A stretch of DNA of 56,970 bases, taken from contig JAZLDI010000026.1 in the NCBI GenBank assembly GCA_045614665.1, positions 1 through 56,970 on the forward strand. Direction: 5' to 3'. This document shows positions 2,249 to 44,019 of this stretch, one piece after another. The notes beneath the pieces were generated by a model, which ran no database searches, was not told the DNA's origin, and saw nothing but the letters and a program-made list of their open reading frames with translations. The stretch is from Candidatus Enterousia sp. (GTDB lineage: Bacteria; Pseudomonadota; Alphaproteobacteria; Rs-D84). The position numbers and the translations under genes were made by a program. Each line of letters starts with the position of its first letter. Position 1 is the first letter of the stretch.

Positions 2249-2301
2249 CCCCGACAGATATTGTCGGGGTGTTGATTATTTCTGGCGGAGACGAAGGGAT
2301 T
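2249..2301 (-). repeat. 53-bp direct repeat: terminator T1 plus last 19 nt of tRNA-Ser
   Basis: Matches 17039-17091 with one mismatch (CCCCGACAGATATTGTCGGGGT.TTGATTATTTCTGGCGGAGACGAAGGGATT). Confidence 0.95.
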
Positions 2302-2458
2302 GTCTGATTCCCATTTGCGCCACGTTGGCGCAATGGGCCCCTTTCGCTGCGTAAGATTCAAACTTCGCCAAATGGCTTGTTTTCATCAACTGACGCCCCG
2401 AACCCAGCAATCACAGATTGCGAACGCTTTGTCCACACTGCAACACCAACACAAAAAT
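2302..2458 (-). repeat. tRNA-linked structured repeat module R (Ser copy)
   Basis: 2302-2405 aligns with 28621-28721; GC-rich hairpin CCCAT-T-TGCGCCA-CGT-TGGCGCA-ATGGG; core ends in CGAACCC. Confidence 0.85.
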
Positions 2459-2479
2459 AAAACGCCCACAACGGGGCGT
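2459..2479. terminator. Terminator T2 (copy 2)
   Basis: AAAACGCCCACAACGGGGCGT, as at 932-959. Confidence 0.65.
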
Positions 2480-2846
2480 GTGATTTTTGTGGCGGAGTAT
2501 GAATACAATACGAATAACTACATACAAATTCCGCTTTTACAGGGAATTTACAGGGATATTTGATATTTTCTTTATATTATCTGGGAGAAACATTAACTTT
2601 CTGGGAACTATCTGGGAAATCTCCTGATTAAGTGGCTCGTTGCAACCGTGGCGGGGTTGTTTTATATACCCTAATCAACCCATTTGAAAAAAATTTTGAA
2701 ATTTGCTATTAATAGTATGGGCGGCGAAATAATGGCGAAGTGTCCGGCCGAGGAATGGACAAATCAAGGGGATACACATATCCCGTTCGCCGTTAGGAGT
2801 AAGTAAAAAATGAAAAAAGTAATTAATCTAAATAAAAGGACCATTC

Positions 2847-5126: not shown

Positions 5127-7888
5127 GTAAATTCATAGAACGTGGCACAGAAGAGTTTGATAAAATATCTGAGTTTGTTCAGACGGACTTATCTTATATA
5201 AAATCTCCAATTCCGTATAATCAAATGATTAAATCTATAAGCTTTTTTGAAAAACTTGTAGGTGCTAAAATGACACCGCCAGCTAAATTATCGGATGTTG
5301 CGAAATTGCAGCTTGTTCGCAGAATGGAAAGTTATTTTGCAATTCAGCCCTTAGTTGGAGAAGATGTAATTGTTGAATCTGAGGTGTCAAAAAACCGACC
5401 TAAGTGGTGGACTAACAAAGCCAATAGAGAAGATGGATATTATTTGAAAAGTTATTTGACGTATTTAAAAAAAGATCCTGCTACGGTCAATATGCGAAAT
5501 AAAGATGCTATAAATAGAGATATGGAGCGAACAGATCTTGTTTTAGACAAATTGTTTGACCCCCAGGATGCCTCAACACAAAGGGAAGATAGACGCGGTC
5601 TAGTTATGGGTAATGTTCAGTCTGGTAAAACATCAAATTATTCTTTGTTGATAAGCAAAGCTGCAGATGCAGGATTTAGATTCATAATAGTTTTAACAGG
5701 TACAATAGAGTTGTTACGTCAGCAAACACAGGGACGATTAGATGAAAGTTTTGTTGGCGAAAAATCGGAAGCAATAGATGGTGCAGATAATATTATAGGT
5801 GTTGGAAAATATCGTTCTCCAAATGATCTGAAAGAAAAACTCCCTATATCAATGACTTCTACTGATACAGATTTTAGAAGCAATCAAAGAAAAGCACTAA
5901 AACCTCTTAATTTAGCCAATACAAAAAGTCCGATTATTTTAGTGGTAAAGAAAAATTCTACTGCCCTAAAAGAAATACAAAAATGGCTGGATGGTAATGC
6001 AGAACAAACAAAACAATACCCTATATTGATGATTGATGACGAAGCAGATGCAGCTTCTGTTTCATCGAAGGGTTCTGAAGATCCGACGGTTATAAATAAA
6101 CTAATTAGGGAGATTTTAAATCGTTTTGATAAGAGTGCATATGTGGGGTACACGGCAACCCCTTTTGCAAATATATTTATTGATCCATTGTATAACACGC
6201 AGGGTATGAATGATTTATATCCAAGTGATTTTATGATTTCTTTGGCTGCGCCAGAAAACTACATTGGGGCAAAAAAGATTTTTGGTGGTTCTGAAGACGA
6301 ATATTCAGATTTCTTGGTCCCGATTGTGGATTGGAGTGATGAATTTCCGTGGAAGCAGAAAAATCCAGAGGTTCATATGTATGCCAATAGATTGCCAGAA
6401 TCATTACAGAATGCAATCCGGTTATTTATGCTAAACATATGTATCAGGGATTTGCGTGGTTATGATGACAAGCACAACAGTATGTTGGTTCATGTTAGTC
6501 GTTTAACAATGGTGCATAAAAAAGTACAAAATCTTATTAAGAAGTTTGTAGAAAAGATCGAAAATGATGTTTTGAATTATGCTGGTGCTCCACAAAACTC
6601 TCAGGAGTATAAAAACGCAATTTTACCATTCAAAACCCTTTTTGAAGATATGTCGGAATCAGGCTATGAGTGCGAGGGGGAATATTTTGGGCGTAATTGG
6701 GCTTCAAATAAGACGTATGGGGTATTTTCATGGGATAAAGTCCTTGAGCGGCTTAAGGATATAGTATCTTCAATATTTGTGGGGGGAGCTTTTTCTACAA
6801 AGAAAAAGGAAATTGTTTATCCAAAAGATAGTAGAGTAAATGTTATTGCTGTTGGCGGTAATACATTGGCTCGTGGATTTACGTTGGAAAACTTAAGTGT
6901 TAGCTATTTTACAAGAAATACAATTGCTTGTGACACATTGTTGCAAATGGGACGCTGGTTTGGCTATAGAACAGCGTACGACGACTTATGCAGAATATTC
7001 ATGCCAGAGGAATGTATTAGGAACTTTAAGTATGCAACAATCTCGTCAGAGGATTTGGTTGAAAATATTAATCAAATGAATAAGAAGGGCGCAGACCCGA
7101 AGGACTTCCTGATAACGATTGCGACCCATCCTGCATCACAGTTGGTGCTGACCGCAGTTAATAAGTCTCGCAATGCCGTTTACAGTAGTGGGGTTCGGTT
7201 AGATGGTAAGCTAGTAGAAAATCCAAATGTAAACGTATCGCATGGTATGAATTTAAATAACAAACAGGAATTATTAGACTGTGTGACCAACATGTCATCT
7301 GAACTAATATCAACATATGGTACTCCAACATTAGATAAAGATGGTTTTTTATGGAAAGATGTGGATGCAAAATTTATTATAGATTTCATCACAGGGTATC
7401 CGATTGATGTTCAGGTAGAATATAGTTCTGACTTCTTTAGAAGATATTTAAAGGAAAATTCCCATTTAAAGTGGGATGTCGCCATAATCAGCAGAGATTA
7501 TGTAAATAAAAATAATACTAAGCCAACAGTTACAATAAATAGTCTGGAGGTATACAAATCTCGTCGTTCATATCGTCAGGGGTCTGATGATAAAAAGATA
7601 AGCATGTCAATTAAAGACGATGAATGTATAGGCTTGGGGTATACGGCAGATAAAAAGCGTGCAGATGCACGAAGTGAAAGGGGTAAGCCTTTATTGCTGA
7701 TTAATATAGTTGATATCTATCTGAATAAAGAAAGTGATGAAAAAGCAATGGAGGATGTGCCGATTGTTACAGTGTCTTTCCCTGGGACATTCAATACACC
7801 CATTACAAAACCTGTATATGGTGCGGTATGGAACAAGAGGGTAGAAGATCACCTGAGGGAAGATTTTGAAGAAAGTGAAGACGAATAA
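5123..7888 (+). CDS. mzaC: Z1-domain SF2 helicase-like protein (MzaC-like)
   Basis: GNVQSGKT, IDDEADAAS, YTATPFAN, RGFTLENL, LLQMGRWFGYR; ATGA overlap with the upstream gene. Confidence 0.88.
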   Translation: MSKFIERGTEEFDKISEFVQTDLSYIKSPIPYNQMIKSISFFEKLVGAKMTPPAKLSDVAKLQLVRRMESYFAIQPLVGEDVIVESEVSKNRPKWWTNKANREDGYYLKSYLTYLKKDPATVNMRNKDAINRDMERTDLVLDKLFDPQDASTQREDRRGLVMGNVQSGKTSNYSLLISKAADAGFRFIIVLTGTIELLRQQTQGRLDESFVGEKSEAIDGADNIIGVGKYRSPNDLKEKLPISMTSTDTDFRSNQRKALKPLNLANTKSPIILVVKKNSTALKEIQKWLDGNAEQTKQYPILMIDDEADAASVSSKGSEDPTVINKLIREILNRFDKSAYVGYTATPFANIFIDPLYNTQGMNDLYPSDFMISLAAPENYIGAKKIFGGSEDEYSDFLVPIVDWSDEFPWKQKNPEVHMYANRLPESLQNAIRLFMLNICIRDLRGYDDKHNSMLVHVSRLTMVHKKVQNLIKKFVEKIENDVLNYAGAPQNSQEYKNAILPFKTLFEDMSESGYECEGEYFGRNWASNKTYGVFSWDKVLERLKDIVSSIFVGGAFSTKKKEIVYPKDSRVNVIAVGGNTLARGFTLENLSVSYFTRNTIACDTLLQMGRWFGYRTAYDDLCRIFMPEECIRNFKYATISSEDLVENINQMNKKGADPKDFLITIATHPASQLVLTAVNKSRNAVYSSGVRLDGKLVENPNVNVSHGMNLNNKQELLDCVTNMSSELISTYGTPTLDKDGFLWKDVDAKFIIDFITGYPIDVQVEYSSDFFRRYLKENSHLKWDVAIISRDYVNKNNTKPTVTINSLEVYKSRRSYRQGSDDKKISMSIKDDECIGLGYTADKKRADARSERGKPLLLINIVDIYLNKESDEKAMEDVPIVTVSFPGTFNTPITKPVYGAVWNKRVEDHLREDFEESEDE

Positions 7889-13760: not shown

Positions 13761-14194
13761 GAAAAAGGGAATTACCCAAAACCATTGATGTATTAAAGGC
13801 ATTACCTTATTCAGAACGGGCAAAGTTATGGGCGAGGTATTCGCCCTACCCGTTCAAACGCCAGAACCGTTCGTTATGGTACTATATTCAATGCGACTGG
13901 TTGGGATTGAGAATAGAGAAAAAGCACTTGGTCAAAATCAAACGATACAAAGACAATCCATCAGAGTGTGTGACACGTGCGGCACGGACTAAATATAACC
14001 TGACACCGGGGGCAATTATACGCAAAGAGTTCCGTGGAATCGTTCATGAAATCATTGTAAATAACGACAATACGTTCACGTATAATGGCGAAAAATATCG
14101 CACTTTATCCGCAATAGCCAAAGATATATCAGGCATCAAGATTTCGGGGCCGGATTTCTTTGGGCTGAGCCAAAGGAAAAGCCATGACAGTTAG
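13757..14194 (+). CDS. DUF2924 domain protein
   Basis: PGAIIRKEFRG...YNGEKYRTLSAIAKDISGIKISGPDFFGL, directly upstream of the recombinase. Confidence 0.85.
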   Translation: MRKRELPKTIDVLKALPYSERAKLWARYSPYPFKRQNRSLWYYIQCDWLGLRIEKKHLVKIKRYKDNPSECVTRAARTKYNLTPGAIIRKEFRGIVHEIIVNNDNTFTYNGEKYRTLSAIAKDISGIKISGPDFFGLSQRKSHDS

Positions 14195-15777
14195 ATGTGC
14201 GATTTATACACGAAAGTCAACCGAGCATGGGTTGGATATGGAGTTTAATTCCCTGCAAAACCAAGAAGAGGCATGTAAGGCGTATATCGCATCCCAATCA
14301 TTCAATGGCTGGCAATATTGCAAAACATACAGCGATGCGGCGATTTCTGGTGGAACTATGGAACGGCCTGCCCTGAAACAAATGTTGGAAGATATGGCAC
14401 ATGGTTTGGTCAATACGGTTGTGGTTTATAAGGTTGACCGACTATCGCGTTCCATTTTAGACTTTCATAAAATGATGCAATATTTCAACAAGTATAATGC
14501 GAACTTTGTGTCCATAACCCAATCGTTTGATACCAGCACATCCATGGGCAAATTGACGCTGAATATGTTGCTGTCGTTTGCCCAGTTTGAACGTGAAGTT
14601 TCATCCGAACGCGTGCGTGATAAAATCCGTGCCAGTAAAGCAAAAGGGATATGGATGGGCGGCGTACCACGCTTAGGTTATGATGTTATAAATAAGAAAC
14701 TAATTGTAAATCCAGCCGAAGCCAAGCAAGTTAGACAACTGTTTGATAAATACTTGGAGCTGCAATCTGTGAACGACCTGACCCTGTGGGCCGAAAGCAA
14801 CGGTATTCGCGCCAAAGCATGGACAACCGCCAAGGGGATGCTGCGTGGTGGCAAACCCATTACCCCAAACAGCATGCACAAGATTTTACGAGACAAAATC
14901 TATATCGGGATGATTGAAAACAAAGTTAGCAATAATGTTGCCCGTGGCGAGCATCAGGCGATCGTGTCGCCAGACATTTTTCAGCGTGTACAAGATGCAC
15001 TGAGGTCGAATTCTAATAATACCAATCATCGCAGGCGGTCACCAAACCTGCTGTCACGAAAACTGTACAATGACAAAGGTGTACGCTTTGCCAATCAACA
15101 CGCATGTCCAAAAGACAAGGCGGGACCATATTACTATGCAACACGGGGATTCTATCTGCCGGCGGCACAGGTGGACGAAATAGCCATGTCTGTTGTGGCC
15201 GAATTTCTGGACAGCGATATGAGTGCCCTGTCCCAAAATGTGGTATTGGCATTGAAACGGATTGTGTGGGATGACCTGTCATACCTGCAAAGACGAGAAT
15301 TGGTTCGCGTTATGATTGAACGAGCAATGTATTCGCAAGAACAACTGATATTCTATATCAACATCAACCCACAGTTGTATAACTCATTTTTATCTACATA
15401 TCACATCAATCATAATAACAGTCCAATGGAATATACGGCAAATGGCGATAATGTGACGATTGTGCGGCCGGTTGTGCTGCGCCGATATGCCAACACCAGA
15501 TTTAGCGGTGGATGCAACGGCACGCTGAGCATTACAGAAAACAACCACCTGCTATTGAAGGCGTTCGCCACCGCGTGGCGATGTAGATTCAATTGGCCGA
15601 GCCGAACATGTCGCCCTGCGCCATGTTTATAAACATCTGTCGCTGGCATATCTGAACCCAGAAGTCGTAAATCATATATTGAGTAATCAATGTCATATAT
15701 CTGTTCGTGATATGTTGGACAAGGCATCACGTAGCAATGAATTTACCGAACAGAAAAAGTTATTTGATTTTCAATAA
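14184..15777 (+). CDS. Large serine recombinase with a frameshifted C-terminus (ORF stops at 15632; native tail runs to 15777 in another frame)
   Basis: RCAIYTRKST, YKVDRLSRS, FAQFEREVSSER. After ~15590 another frame reads AEHVALRHVYKHLSLAYLNPEVVNHIL...EQKKLFDFQ*, a typical tail for this family. Confidence 0.85.
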
Positions 15778-16914: not shown

Positions 16915-17038
16915 AATTGCCACGGTGGTTTTGGGGATTGTATGTAAACAGTGATAAAATTGGGTTATTTTGGGTTTTAATTATACATACTGGTAACTTC
17001 GTGGCGAAAAAGTGGCTGGAATCCGCCTAAAAACAAAG

Positions 17039-17060
17039 CCCCGACAGATATTGTCGGGGT
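17039..17060. terminator. Terminator T1 downstream of tRNA-Ser
   Basis: CCCCGACA-GATAT-TGTCGGGG hairpin. Confidence 0.7.
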
Positions 17061-17072
17061 TTTGATTATTTC

Positions 17073-17163
17073 TGGCGGAGACGAAGGGATTCGAACCCTT
17101 GATACCCTTGCGAGTATACTACATTTCCAATGTAGCGCACTAGACCAACTATGCGACGTCTCC
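17073..17163 (-). tRNA. tRNA-Ser(GGA)
   Basis: GGAGACG...CTACA-TTGGAAA-TGTAG, long variable arm, GGTTCGAATCC, CGTCTCC-G-CCA. Confidence 0.97.
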
Positions 17164-27320: not shown

Positions 27321-27666
27321 TAAAAAACGCATCTATAACCAGAATGTATGCCAATGTTAAAATAGGCCACACAATCATTCCTAATATTGGAACAAACAGG
27401 AATTTCCATTTATATCGTTTGATTGTGTGACTAGCAATCAGCACAAACGTTATACCGAATAAGATTATACAAATCTGGTCGATAAGTATTAAACAGCTTT
27501 GATTACAAAGAAAATATAGCAAGCCATCCCATTTGCTGACACTTAAAAGCCCACGCAAATCATTCATAAAGAATAATAGTATACTAAAAGATAAAACGCT
27601 TGCTATGAAACTCATCATCTGTATGATACTTTGACAATCAAATCTTGTCCATGTTTTTTTAGCCAC
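27316..27666 (-). CDS. Membrane protein, putative immunity protein
   Basis: Three TM segments; overlaps the toxin 3' end. Confidence 0.5.
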   Translation of the reverse strand: MAKKTWTRFDCQSIIQMMSFIASVLSFSILLFFMNDLRGLLSVSKWDGLLYFLCNQSCLILIDQICIILFGITFVLIASHTIKRYKWKFLFVPILGMIVWPILTLAYILVIDAFFM

Positions 27667-28448
27667 TGTGTAAAATCTGCCATATTTTCTGTCAAATCAA
27701 TACAACCATTAGAACCAGCGGTCCAACCACCGTGTACATAAAATCCTCCTCTGCCGTACGTATTGGTTGATGTAGATGCCTCTAACGCTATTCTTGATTT
27801 GCCCCATGATGGCTGACCGCCAGGCCAGGTCCCAACACCAACAAGTCCCATTGTTGACCCGTATATTGTTATTCCTTGTAAGCTTTGTTGTCTTGCGACG
27901 TATGTTCCCTCTGGGATTGTTCCTTTGTCTTTCATAGATTGAAATTCTGGTGTTTGATAGCCTTTGTTTCCAGATACTGCGTCCCACGACATAATTGGCT
28001 TGTTGTTTTCATAAATGCTTAATGTTTTTCCATCAAACACTGCAACTTGATTTTTGTTTGTATTGACCGGATATTCAAATTTTGCACCATGTGATTCAAA
28101 CTTCGTATTCAACACGCGTTCTGTTTCGTCACCCGATGATATGCGCCCAGTTATGGGTAAATTGTTATCGCGTTGAAAATCCTTAATCGCTGTAATCAGT
28201 TCTGTGTTTGTGTATTTGTGAAATTGTCCGTTATAGTGATATGGGCAAATGCGCTCGTATGGGGCGACCTCGGTGCCATCGGCACGTGTGTATCCGGACA
28301 CTTGAATAATTCCGTCACATTGCTCGGTGGAATCACGACCATTATTTGCACCTTGTTGTCCTTTTAATTTTGCGTATATATTGGCCAGTGTGCCTGCGGC
28401 CTGAACCCAATCTTTGGTTCGCATAGACGTGTACTCTTTAAGTGCCAT
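27615..28448 (-). CDS. Tlde1/DUF2778-like L,D-transpeptidase-fold protein with a PG-binding-like domain
   Basis: AIKDFQRDNNLPITG (PG_binding_1-like); FDGKTL...AVSG...GTIPEGTY...HGG....GSNGCIDL; AAAGGAG RBS. Confidence 0.75.
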   Translation of the reverse strand: MALKEYTSMRTKDWVQAAGTLANIYAKLKGQQGANNGRDSTEQCDGIIQVSGYTRADGTEVAPYERICPYHYNGQFHKYTNTELITAIKDFQRDNNLPITGRISSGDETERVLNTKFESHGAKFEYPVNTNKNQVAVFDGKTLSIYENNKPIMSWDAVSGNKGYQTPEFQSMKDKGTIPEGTYVARQQSLQGITIYGSTMGLVGVGTWPGGQPSWGKSRIALEASTSTNTYGRGGFYVHGGWTAGSNGCIDLTENMADFTQWLKKHGQDLIVKVSYR

Positions 28449-28569
28449 ATTTTTCTCCTTTGGCTAAATAAAAAAACGCCCGTATATGCGGGCAATAAAA
28501 AAAGACGACCAAATGTCGTCCGCAGAATGCATTTATTATATCACAAAACACGATTTTTTTCAAGATAAA

Positions 28570-28620
28570 ACAAAACGACCGGCAAGCGGTCGTTGATTTT
28601 CTGGTGGGGACACAGGGACT
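28570..28620 (-). repeat. Duplicate of the tRNA-Lys last 19 nt plus terminator
   Basis: 28602-28620 TGGTGGGGACACAGGGACT = 28786-28804; the terminator AACGACCGGCA.GCGGTCGTT is duplicated too. Confidence 0.95.
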
Positions 28621-28753
28621 GTAAATCCCCATCTGCGCCGCGTCGGCGCGATGGGCCCCATTCACTACGTAAGGTTCAAACTTCGTTTGCACTTGTTTTC
28701 ACCAACTGGCGTTCCGAACCCTTTTTGGGTTCTCGTCCGCGCCCCATACAAAA
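28621..28753 (-). repeat. tRNA-linked structured repeat module R (Lys copy)
   Basis: Homologous to 2302-2405; followed by a GAACCC-TTTTT-GGGTTC hairpin. Confidence 0.85.
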
Positions 28754-28785
28754 ACAAAACGACCGGCATGCGGTCGTTAATTTTC

Positions 28786-28861
28786 TGGTGGGGACACAGG
28801 GACTCGAACCCTGGACCCAATGATTAAAAGTCATTTGCTCTACCAACTGAGCTATGTCCCC
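28786..28861 (-). tRNA. tRNA-Lys(TTT)
   Basis: GGGGACA...AATGA-CTTTTAA-TCATT...GGTTCGAGTCC-TGTCCCC-A-CCA. Confidence 0.97.
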
Positions 28862-28964
28862 AAAACCGGACCTGGAAAGGGAGAACACTGGGTTCTGTTT
28901 CCAAGGTACGGGGGCAATTTTGACACATTTAAAATTAAAAATCAAGAAAAAATAACAAAAATTC

Positions 28965-43941: not shown

Positions 43942-44019
43942 GGAATATGTGGTTCTGGTTGGGACACTTGATAGCATGCAACACGCATCTCGTCGGTTCG
44001 AGTCCGATCAGCTCCACCA
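43942..44019 (+). pseudogene. Decayed tandem copy of tRNA-Ala with an intact 30-nt 3' end
   Basis: 43990-44019 TCGTCGGTTCGAGTCCGATCAGCTCCACCA identical to the tRNA 3' end; upstream CACTTGATAGCATGCAA resembles the anticodon arm. Confidence 0.7.

Follow-up and report, generated by a model that had tools for sequence, protein, structure and literature searches.

The window analysed here is a stretch of 56,970 nucleotides from Candidatus Enterousia sp. (assembly GCA_045614665.1, contig JAZLDI010000026.1, positions 1 to 56,970). ARAGORN and the Rfam tRNA/tmRNA models recognise only four true tRNAs in it and call none of the units described below. Rfam at gathering thresholds likewise matched only the four tRNAs across the window, and permissive Rfam scans gave chance-level matches only. 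Two of these tRNAs, for serine and lysine, are associated with gene-less units of about 150 nt, which lie on the tRNA strand between two intrinsic terminators. In sense order such a unit consists of a 5' segment, seven bases copied from tRNA positions 51-57, a conserved core of some 93 nt, and a copy of tRNA positions 58-76 including the CCA. We are confident that both sites belong by their design to the class of repeats named TLRs in E. coli, and they are here called TLR A and TLR B, or units A and B.

Unit B lies behind tRNA-Lys(UUU) (28786-28861, minus strand; found by ARAGORN and the Rfam tRNA model), and all its parts are on the same strand as the tRNA. In the sense direction, the tRNA is followed by its terminator (28750-28785, hairpin 28758-28778), the 28-nt 5' segment of the unit (28722-28749), the 101-nt type-1 core (28621-28721), the tail (28602-28620), and a second terminator (28568-28601, hairpin 28574-28594), to which the first is 89% alike. 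The core begins with GGGTTCG (28715-28721) and matches our covariance model R1 with 122.8 bits (E = 1.6e-31). The tail is identical to positions 58-76 of tRNA-Lys(UUU) at 19 of 19 bases; the first-pass annotation had set its coordinate at this junction, 28621, one base off. From the tRNA it is 36 nt to the start of the unit and 65 nt to its core. Within the 5' segment, GAACCC (28727-28732) forms with GGGTTC a hairpin that we call H2, and GGGGCGCGG (28737-28745) is able to pair with the tail in a duplex of -18 kcal/mol. The MFE fold of the whole unit is multi-branched and contains both H2 and the helix that joins the 5' segment to the tail (-57.7 kcal/mol, z = -2.56).

No promoter-like site was found between the tRNA-Lys terminator and unit B. 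A strong promoter-like site is present directly 3' of the TLR B terminator, at 28535-28563 on the minus strand (TTGAAA, a 17-nt spacer and TATAAT with TG; 11/12 matches), and presumably drives the downstream gene at 27615-28448.

Unit A is also on the minus strand. Its type-1 core (2302-2405; R1 118 bits, E = 2.8e-30) contains the helices Hc, Hd, Ha and He. The first seven bases, GGGTTCG (2399-2405), repeat tRNA positions 51-57, and at its other end the core runs into a tail (2283-2301) that equals positions 58-76 of tRNA-Ser(GGA), CCA included, with 0 mismatches in 19. In the sequence a terminator follows (2240-2282), with a hairpin at about 2249-2269 and then a run of T; the same terminator stands 3' of the orthologous unit in relative L070, and a near-identical copy is found at 17033-17072 behind tRNA-Ser. 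The 5' segment (2406-2454) holds a small hairpin, GCAATC / GATTGC, which is kept in the Ser-linked orthologues. This segment pairs weakly with the tail and is just a degenerate relic of the inverted tRNA 3' half. The fold of the whole unit is less distinctive than that of unit B (z = -1.30).

The tRNA that owns unit A, tRNA-Ser(GGA) (17073-17163, minus strand; ARAGORN, and 59 bits with the Rfam tRNA model), now lies 14.7 kb upstream, while the gap in relatives is about 84 nt. The gene order in four relatives is tRNA-Ser, terminator, unit, tail, terminator. In the window the native tRNA-Ser terminator (2455-2489, minus strand), which stands directly 3' of tRNA-Ser in L059, L060, L062 and L070, is set apart from the tRNA and is preceded by an 8-base leftover of tRNA-Ser, its last bases up to and including CCA, at the far junction of an island (2490-2497, minus strand). 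It follows that the site of insertion was in the final 8 nt of tRNA-Ser and that the island displaced unit A, which belongs to tRNA-Ser(GGA). The island occupies 14.6 kb between tRNA-Ser and TLR A (2498 to about 17030), and carries a Mza-type defence system (PADLOC models MzaB, MzaC, MzaD and MzaE), two methyltransferases, an HNH protein and a large serine recombinase (14184-15632). In the present arrangement, tRNA-Ser precedes a near-copy of the terminator that normally comes after the TLR tail. The first-pass annotation had both modules downstream of their tRNAs, which is correct as it stands for unit B, but for unit A the tRNA is 14.7 kb off, across the island.

The presence of a 14.6-kb island in the 3' end of tRNA-Ser lends something to the explanation that the units are scars of integrative elements, the tail being a displaced half of an attachment site and the module a decayed island end. 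Integrases often target tRNA genes from the T-loop to the 3' end. However, the end of the present island beside the tail remnant is unlike the module, and the island junction uses the last 8 nt of the tRNA and not position 58. We return to this explanation below.

The two modules are homologous, as originally proposed from inspection of the window: module A (2283-2412, minus strand) and 28602-28721 are 77% identical over query positions 8-130 (E = 1.2e-19). The further proposal that each joins the exact last 19 nt, A58 to CCA, of tRNA-Ser(GGA) or tRNA-Lys(UUU) also holds, with 0 mismatches; by simple arithmetic, one given 19-mer should recur in a 0.9-Mb genome with a chance of about 1e-5. Each window locus duplicates its own terminator (28574-28594 resembles 28758-28778, and 2240-2282 resembles 17033-17072). 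This duplication, which the annotation had noted at both sites, is not general: the two terminators are at least 80% alike in only 12 of 35 related loci.

The window also has a unit without a module (43942-44019), in the spacer between tRNA-Ala and tRNA-His. Here positions 43990-44019 are an exact 30-nt copy of the tRNA-Ala 3' end (whole T-arm, acceptor strand and CCA), which follows 48 nt after the gene with no intervening terminator.

A module family at a fixed tRNA position

Related copies were fetched, 20 of them were aligned with MAFFT (alignment A2), and the covariance model R1 was then built. R1 matches 141 of the 151 sampled genomes of the genus, giving 673 matches at E <= 0.001 and between 1 and 13 per genome, so that the family of tRNA-linked modules suspected from two copies is indeed a family. 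The window's own genome has six matches. In a sample of the order, an R1 match is present in 111 of 120 genomes belonging to the same taxonomic family, six other genera included; the matches are weaker in two other families (8/19 and 2/3 genomes), and there are none in the seven genomes from the remaining three families. Genomes carrying type-1 modules are of about 0.9 Mb. Many of the R1 matches are found close to a contig end, at a distance of up to about 250 nt (for example G108:C9:8-127, G074:C1:110-229 and G119:C20:10-126), and the repeats thus seem to break metagenome assemblies. This is of practical importance, as is the fact that the units can pass for integration scars.

The fetched loci contain 56 distinct type-1 copies, 52 of them full length and 43 with at least 350 nt of upstream context. 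A tRNA on the same strand is found within 300 nt in 36 of these 43, and in 34 of the 36 the distance is 44-85 nt. With 46 tRNAs in 911 kb, the arithmetical chance of such linkage is below 1% per site. The seven tRNA-less copies belong to arrays, stand in loci cut short by the contig, or represent unit A. Eleven tRNA species are linked: Lys-UUU, Lys-CUU, Ser-GGA, Glu-UUC, Asp, Gly-CCC, His, Arg-UCU, Arg-CCU, Met and Leu-CAA. A 19-mer scan of the window's genome revealed exact tail copies also for tRNA-Arg(ACG), tRNA-Pro(GGG), tRNA-Ala(GGC), tRNA-Leu(CAA) and tRNA-Asn. In genome G000, exact tail copies of tRNA-Asn, tRNA-Leu(CAA) and tRNA-Leu(CAG) occur on other contigs.

The tail is exactly the last 19 nt of the linked tRNA in 28 of 36 copies. 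The remaining eight have diverged, four by 1-5 mismatches and four by 8 mismatches in 19 (Asp three times, Arg-CCU once). All exact tails begin at A58, right behind the last bases of the core, and the constant T-loop junction noticed in the window is therefore a property of the family, always falling between positions 57 and 58. Where the tail of a tRNA differs between species, as in tRNA-Ser (three variants), tRNA-His and tRNA-Arg(UCU), the TLR tails mirror the difference. Most copies are thus linked to tRNAs, the junction is fixed, and the window modules find no Rfam match at gathering thresholds; unlinked copies, randomly placed junctions or a match to a described family had been named at the outset as what would speak against a tRNA-linked family.

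The left edge of the module was likewise read correctly as the other half of the T-arm. GGGTTCG opens both window modules, and across the family 27 of 35 loci have a core that opens with the cognate tRNA positions 51-57; among these are the Met-linked units, whose GGGTCCG is the unusual sequence of their own tRNA. Since the left edge copies positions 51-57 and the tail positions 58-76, the unit comprises positions 51-76 of the local tRNA, split at 57/58 by the core. In 37 of 48 copies the first six bases have a complementary stretch of 5 nt or more upstream, with which they form hairpin H2. The Ser-linked group, to which unit A belongs, has no H2 and has another small hairpin instead.

Such a precise position is also what would be expected of a miniature IS200/IS605-type element (PATE), or of an orphan guide-RNA-like scaffold, inserted after the T-loop TTCG. 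The insertion is exact and adds no target duplication, 7-9 nt before the right junction there is a hairpin, and the layout, scaffold followed by about 19 nt of flank, is like that of a transposon-end RNA with a 3' guide. However, searches for the Y1 transposase (PF01797) and the TnpB zinc ribbon (PF07282) in five genomes (G000, G108, G054, G023 and G150), including four of the most copy-rich, gave 0/5 for each, with positive controls. Moreover, a guide of this kind would hit the intact cognate tRNA gene, and the sequence before the junction varies, being TAC, GAC or AAC. We consider this origin very improbable. In the same five genomes, the recombinase or RAYT-like gene that the first-pass annotation had suggested looking for did not materialise, neither Y1 transposase nor TnpB being present.

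Besides type 1, at least two further module types occur at the same 57/58 position, in loci L013, L014, L017, L020, L026, L037 and L062 and at G000:C13 ~73767-73896 and G000:C20 ~6940-7119. The type-2 module opens with GGGTTCGACAATGAG, and the third type is found behind tRNA-Lys in L026. Tandem arrays are present in L013, L014, L017, L037, L038 and L042, and the further types alternate with type 1 in tandem arrays. An arm like Hd of type 1 is present in some type-2 copies, and the modules are therefore mosaic.

With this, the explanation by island scars can be weighed in full. A decayed island end would have to account for a conserved, covarying and gene-less module of 100 nt, found in 141 of 151 genomes and at 11 tRNA species, as well as for tandem arrays of alternating module types. 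Together with the mismatch between the window's island and the module, this makes it a very remote explanation.

Three observations made on these loci may be added. In L014 (G004:C11:127786-130891), a 3.1-kb locus with no tRNA within it, a type-1 core of the Lys kind carries a tail of the tRNA-His type and comes directly after Lys-tailed units; this mixture of core and tail may be a rearrangement by recombination between units. In L013, positions 1267-1345 (a terminator and the 5' part of a type-2 unit) weakly match the Rfam family Aggregatibacter sRNA 82 (RF02900; 23 bits, E = 0.22, threshold 51), which raises the possibility that this sRNA, too, belongs to a TLR-like unit. Finally, ARAGORN finds at G000:C13:70283-70637 a permuted (two-piece) tmRNA with the tag AANDNVRLAMAA. 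A permuted tmRNA fits the Alphaproteobacteria.

Folding and history of the core

The type-1 core is characterised by a long arm, which has a tandem G.A motif inside it, and by a variable GC-rich hairpin. It has four helices: a short helix Hc, Hd with 9 positions and the internal tandem G.A, the capping stem Ha, and the GC-rich hairpin He. The covariation of the GC-rich hairpin, first seen in the window, is confirmed, the two window modules differing there by one compensatory pair.

The helices were examined in two alignments. In A2, with 20 sequences, 94.7% of cells are paired, as against 25-44% when the partner is slid by 1-3 columns; 45 cells are changed on both sides, compared with 15.6 +/- 4.3 in shuffles, and 0 of 500 shuffles reach the observed number. 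In the model-fitted alignment A3, with 53 distinct copies, 98.0% are paired (23-42% with the partner slid by 1-3 columns) and 105 cells are changed on both sides (35.8 +/- 7.2 in shuffles, 0 of 500 reaching the observed number). A3 is fitted to the structure of the model and so favours the pairing counts, but in the hand-independent A2 pairing is still 94.7%. Helix Hd is 100% paired in A3, with three covarying pairs. A3 further contains 69 G.U cells, at which the opposite strand would have mismatches, and the folded strand is therefore the tRNA-sense strand. Indels between copies are not multiples of three.

Two other readings of parts of the core were tried and rejected. An internal GTTTGAA was considered as a T-arm-like element, but its bases are one strand of Hd, with perfect covariation. 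A UGAUGA-like stretch was considered as a hammerhead or K-turn and dropped on inspection, there being no CUGA and the tandem G.A lacking a flanking 3-nt bulge.

The pairing of the 5' segment with the tail, seen in unit B, is another matter. In calculated duplex energies, the cognate combination has a clear advantage over non-cognate ones in no more than about 5 of 17 units, site A not being among them. By DNA identity, the antisense-tail signal is weak for type 1 (5.5 versus 4.7; permutation 2/2000), and in this test it is absent from the Ser, Lys-CUU and Met groups; a near-perfect antisense tail occurs only in some units of the other module types. An acceptor-like closing helix is thus not general, and it is weak or absent at site A.

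Among orthologous loci (groups of 3-7), core identity is 0.76-0.94, compared with 0.50-0.65 upstream of the tRNA and 0.31-0.41 in the distal downstream region. A quick tree of 52 cores, which with some 100 columns is a weak one, groups most copies by tRNA locus, and places five or six tRNA types in more than one position. Presence is variable: of six loci taken for tRNA-Lys only, four have no unit, one has other module types, and one is at a contig end. From the tree and the variable presence, the units give the picture of an old family that is passed on mainly by descent and now and then exchanges, loses or tandemly multiplies its members. The clustering of cores by tRNA locus across species points to old, largely vertical inheritance, as far as sequences of this length can tell. 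The first-pass annotation had pictured an element spreading between tRNA genes through the conserved T-loop, which is not demonstrated by these data, given that cores mostly cluster by locus.

These results bear on the explanation that the units are a selfish or neutral DNA repeat, generated by template switching or recombination at the near-palindromic T-arm, with no RNA function and with tail identity as a by-product. Much of the anatomy described above would suit it. In 27 of 35 loci the left edge reproduces tRNA positions 51-57, and in the Met-linked units GGGTCCG is accompanied by a compensating upstream GGACCC; 37 of 48 copies are preceded by an inverted T-arm copy; the 57/58 position is shared by at least three unrelated module types; and a module-less 30-nt tail copy stands behind tRNA-Ala in the window. 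The absence of a unit at four of the six tRNA-Lys-only loci and the polyphyly of several tRNA types in the core tree can be read in the same way. However, the compensatory changes and G.U pairs mean selection on the folded sense strand, and the core is conserved well above its flanks across many species of a genome-reduced lineage. Nor were the usual companions of a mobile repeat found: a transposase or integrase partner is missing (Y1 and TnpB, five genomes), and unit B has no match in phage and plasmid collections at E <= 1e-3. That the TLRs are kept in nearly all genomes of a lineage shedding most of its non-essential DNA argues for function and not junk. On balance we think a selfish or neutral repeat unlikely.

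Expression, proposed role and known relatives

The region 28440-28960 is covered by four RNA-library runs, all of them represented only by assembled contigs from the metatranscriptomes of one study, and two of the four covered the tRNA alone. The contigs over unit B have a coverage of about 30-50, like the flanks, and their ends coincide with repeat boundaries.

On the basis of the fold, the conservation and the tails, we hypothesise that the TLRs give rise to read-through trailer RNA with a selected folded core and a tRNA-identical tail, and put the probability of this overall reading at roughly 60%. An RNA polymerase that passes the tRNA terminator would transcribe the TLR unit. The RNA would then fold, and its tRNA-identical tail would bring cleavage, trimming and CCA upkeep of the kind applied to tRNA 3' ends. 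This would yield a small RNA that is stable, ends in CCA and would act in trans. For read-through and processing as the mechanism, we would give even odds; a CCA-ending transcript from the units is plausible from this analysis. Read-through may be rare, given how strong the terminators in front of the units look. Gene conversion with the tRNA gene probably keeps the tail the same as in the neighbouring tRNA, and the units are probably gained, lost and tandemly multiplied via recombination between the repeated tails.

One feature is left unexplained by the read-through reading. The left edge and the tail both copy the local tRNA, which points to a copying process at the level of DNA. It is conceivable, though we regard it as doubtful, that TLR-type units are a widespread, unrecognised and tRNA-matched class well beyond the enterobacteria, in which the frame arises by templated, T-arm-driven copying of the 3' half of the cognate tRNA on both strands, the cores are inserted site-specifically at 57/58, and the CCA-ending RNA is a tRNA-specific mimic. 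Such a mimic, if it exists, might divert or sense those enzymes, toxins or integrases for which the acceptor/T-arm end of that tRNA is the recognition site. Its functional part would be the type-1 core, which about 93% of the genomes have retained in this lineage of roughly 0.9-Mb genomes.

Returning to the read-through reading and to the class as a whole, the closest known system is that of the E. coli TLRs, and the comparison with tyrT/rtT made in the first-pass annotation was the right one, since the same design is that of this named E. coli class. TLRs were described by Egan and Landy in 1978 and by Rudd in 1999, and in E. coli there are 22 at ten loci, with a 3' end of 18-19 nt identical to the upstream tRNA or 5S rRNA (PMC8144298, in the sections available). 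In these sections TLRs are treated as an enterobacterial feature and have 'no known function' save three rRNA-linked ones. They have been without an explanation since 1978, and the same design now appears with an unrelated and strongly covarying core.

The Enterousia units share the position of the E. coli TLRs/RtT RNA (the 178-bp tyrT-tyrV repeats, rttR, RF00391), behind tRNA genes on the same strand (36 nt from the tRNA for unit B, and in 36 of 43 copies overall). Like the E. coli tyrT unit, they have an exact 19-nt tRNA tail from A58 (19/19 in the window, 28 of 36 related copies), where the class has a last 18-19 nt equal to the tRNA 3' end. As in the tyrT unit, too, there is a sense copy of the 5' half of the T-arm and an antisense-like 5' segment, the latter paired with the tail by Rfam in E. 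coli. Tandem arrays and several loci per genome are common to both, as far as the E. coli TLRs are covered by the source, and the Enterousia loci have one to several units each, with 1-13 copies per genome.

The cores are different. The core sequence and fold of RtT are unrelated to those of type 1: the RtT model (RF00391) gives 12.3 bits at unit B (E = 9), where the gathering score is 45 bits and the E. coli control reaches 133-137 bits, and it has no matches in 20 related loci or in a type-2 unit; conversely, R1 has no match on the E. coli tyrT locus. The type-1 sequence is thus a new family, unrelated to the Rfam RtT core. The host differs as well, Enterousia being a gut bacterium with a tiny genome and no enterobacterium, and each Enterousia unit has its own terminator. 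With hundreds of copies at 11 tRNA species the family provides a comparative data set, and its anatomy is testable, with a fixed 57/58 junction, a split T-arm copy, and a tail that tracks its tRNA across species.

Among E. coli TLRs, RrA, RrB and RrF lie behind the 5S rRNA genes of rrnA, rrnB and rrnD. According to the sections of PMC8144298 available, they are read-through transcripts that are processed and that bind Hfq and CsrA in vitro via GGA motifs. They resemble the Enterousia units in lying between two terminators and in repeating the 3' end of the upstream stable RNA, for which the authors of that work propose a role in processing; they differ in being linked to 5S rRNA, whereas the Enterousia units are linked to tRNA. 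The 3'ETS-leuZ RNA of E. coli, as described in the same sections, is similar in that a functional small RNA is cut from a tRNA 3' trailer, but it comes without a copy of the tRNA tail, a multi-copy family or a conserved multi-helix core.

Lastly, the attachment sites of tRNA-targeting islands, one of which is present in the window, also create direct repeats of tRNA 3' ends. The TLR units differ from these in their junction, which is unlike that of the window island, and in being gene-less units with a conserved folded core, present at many tRNAs in nearly all genomes of the genus.
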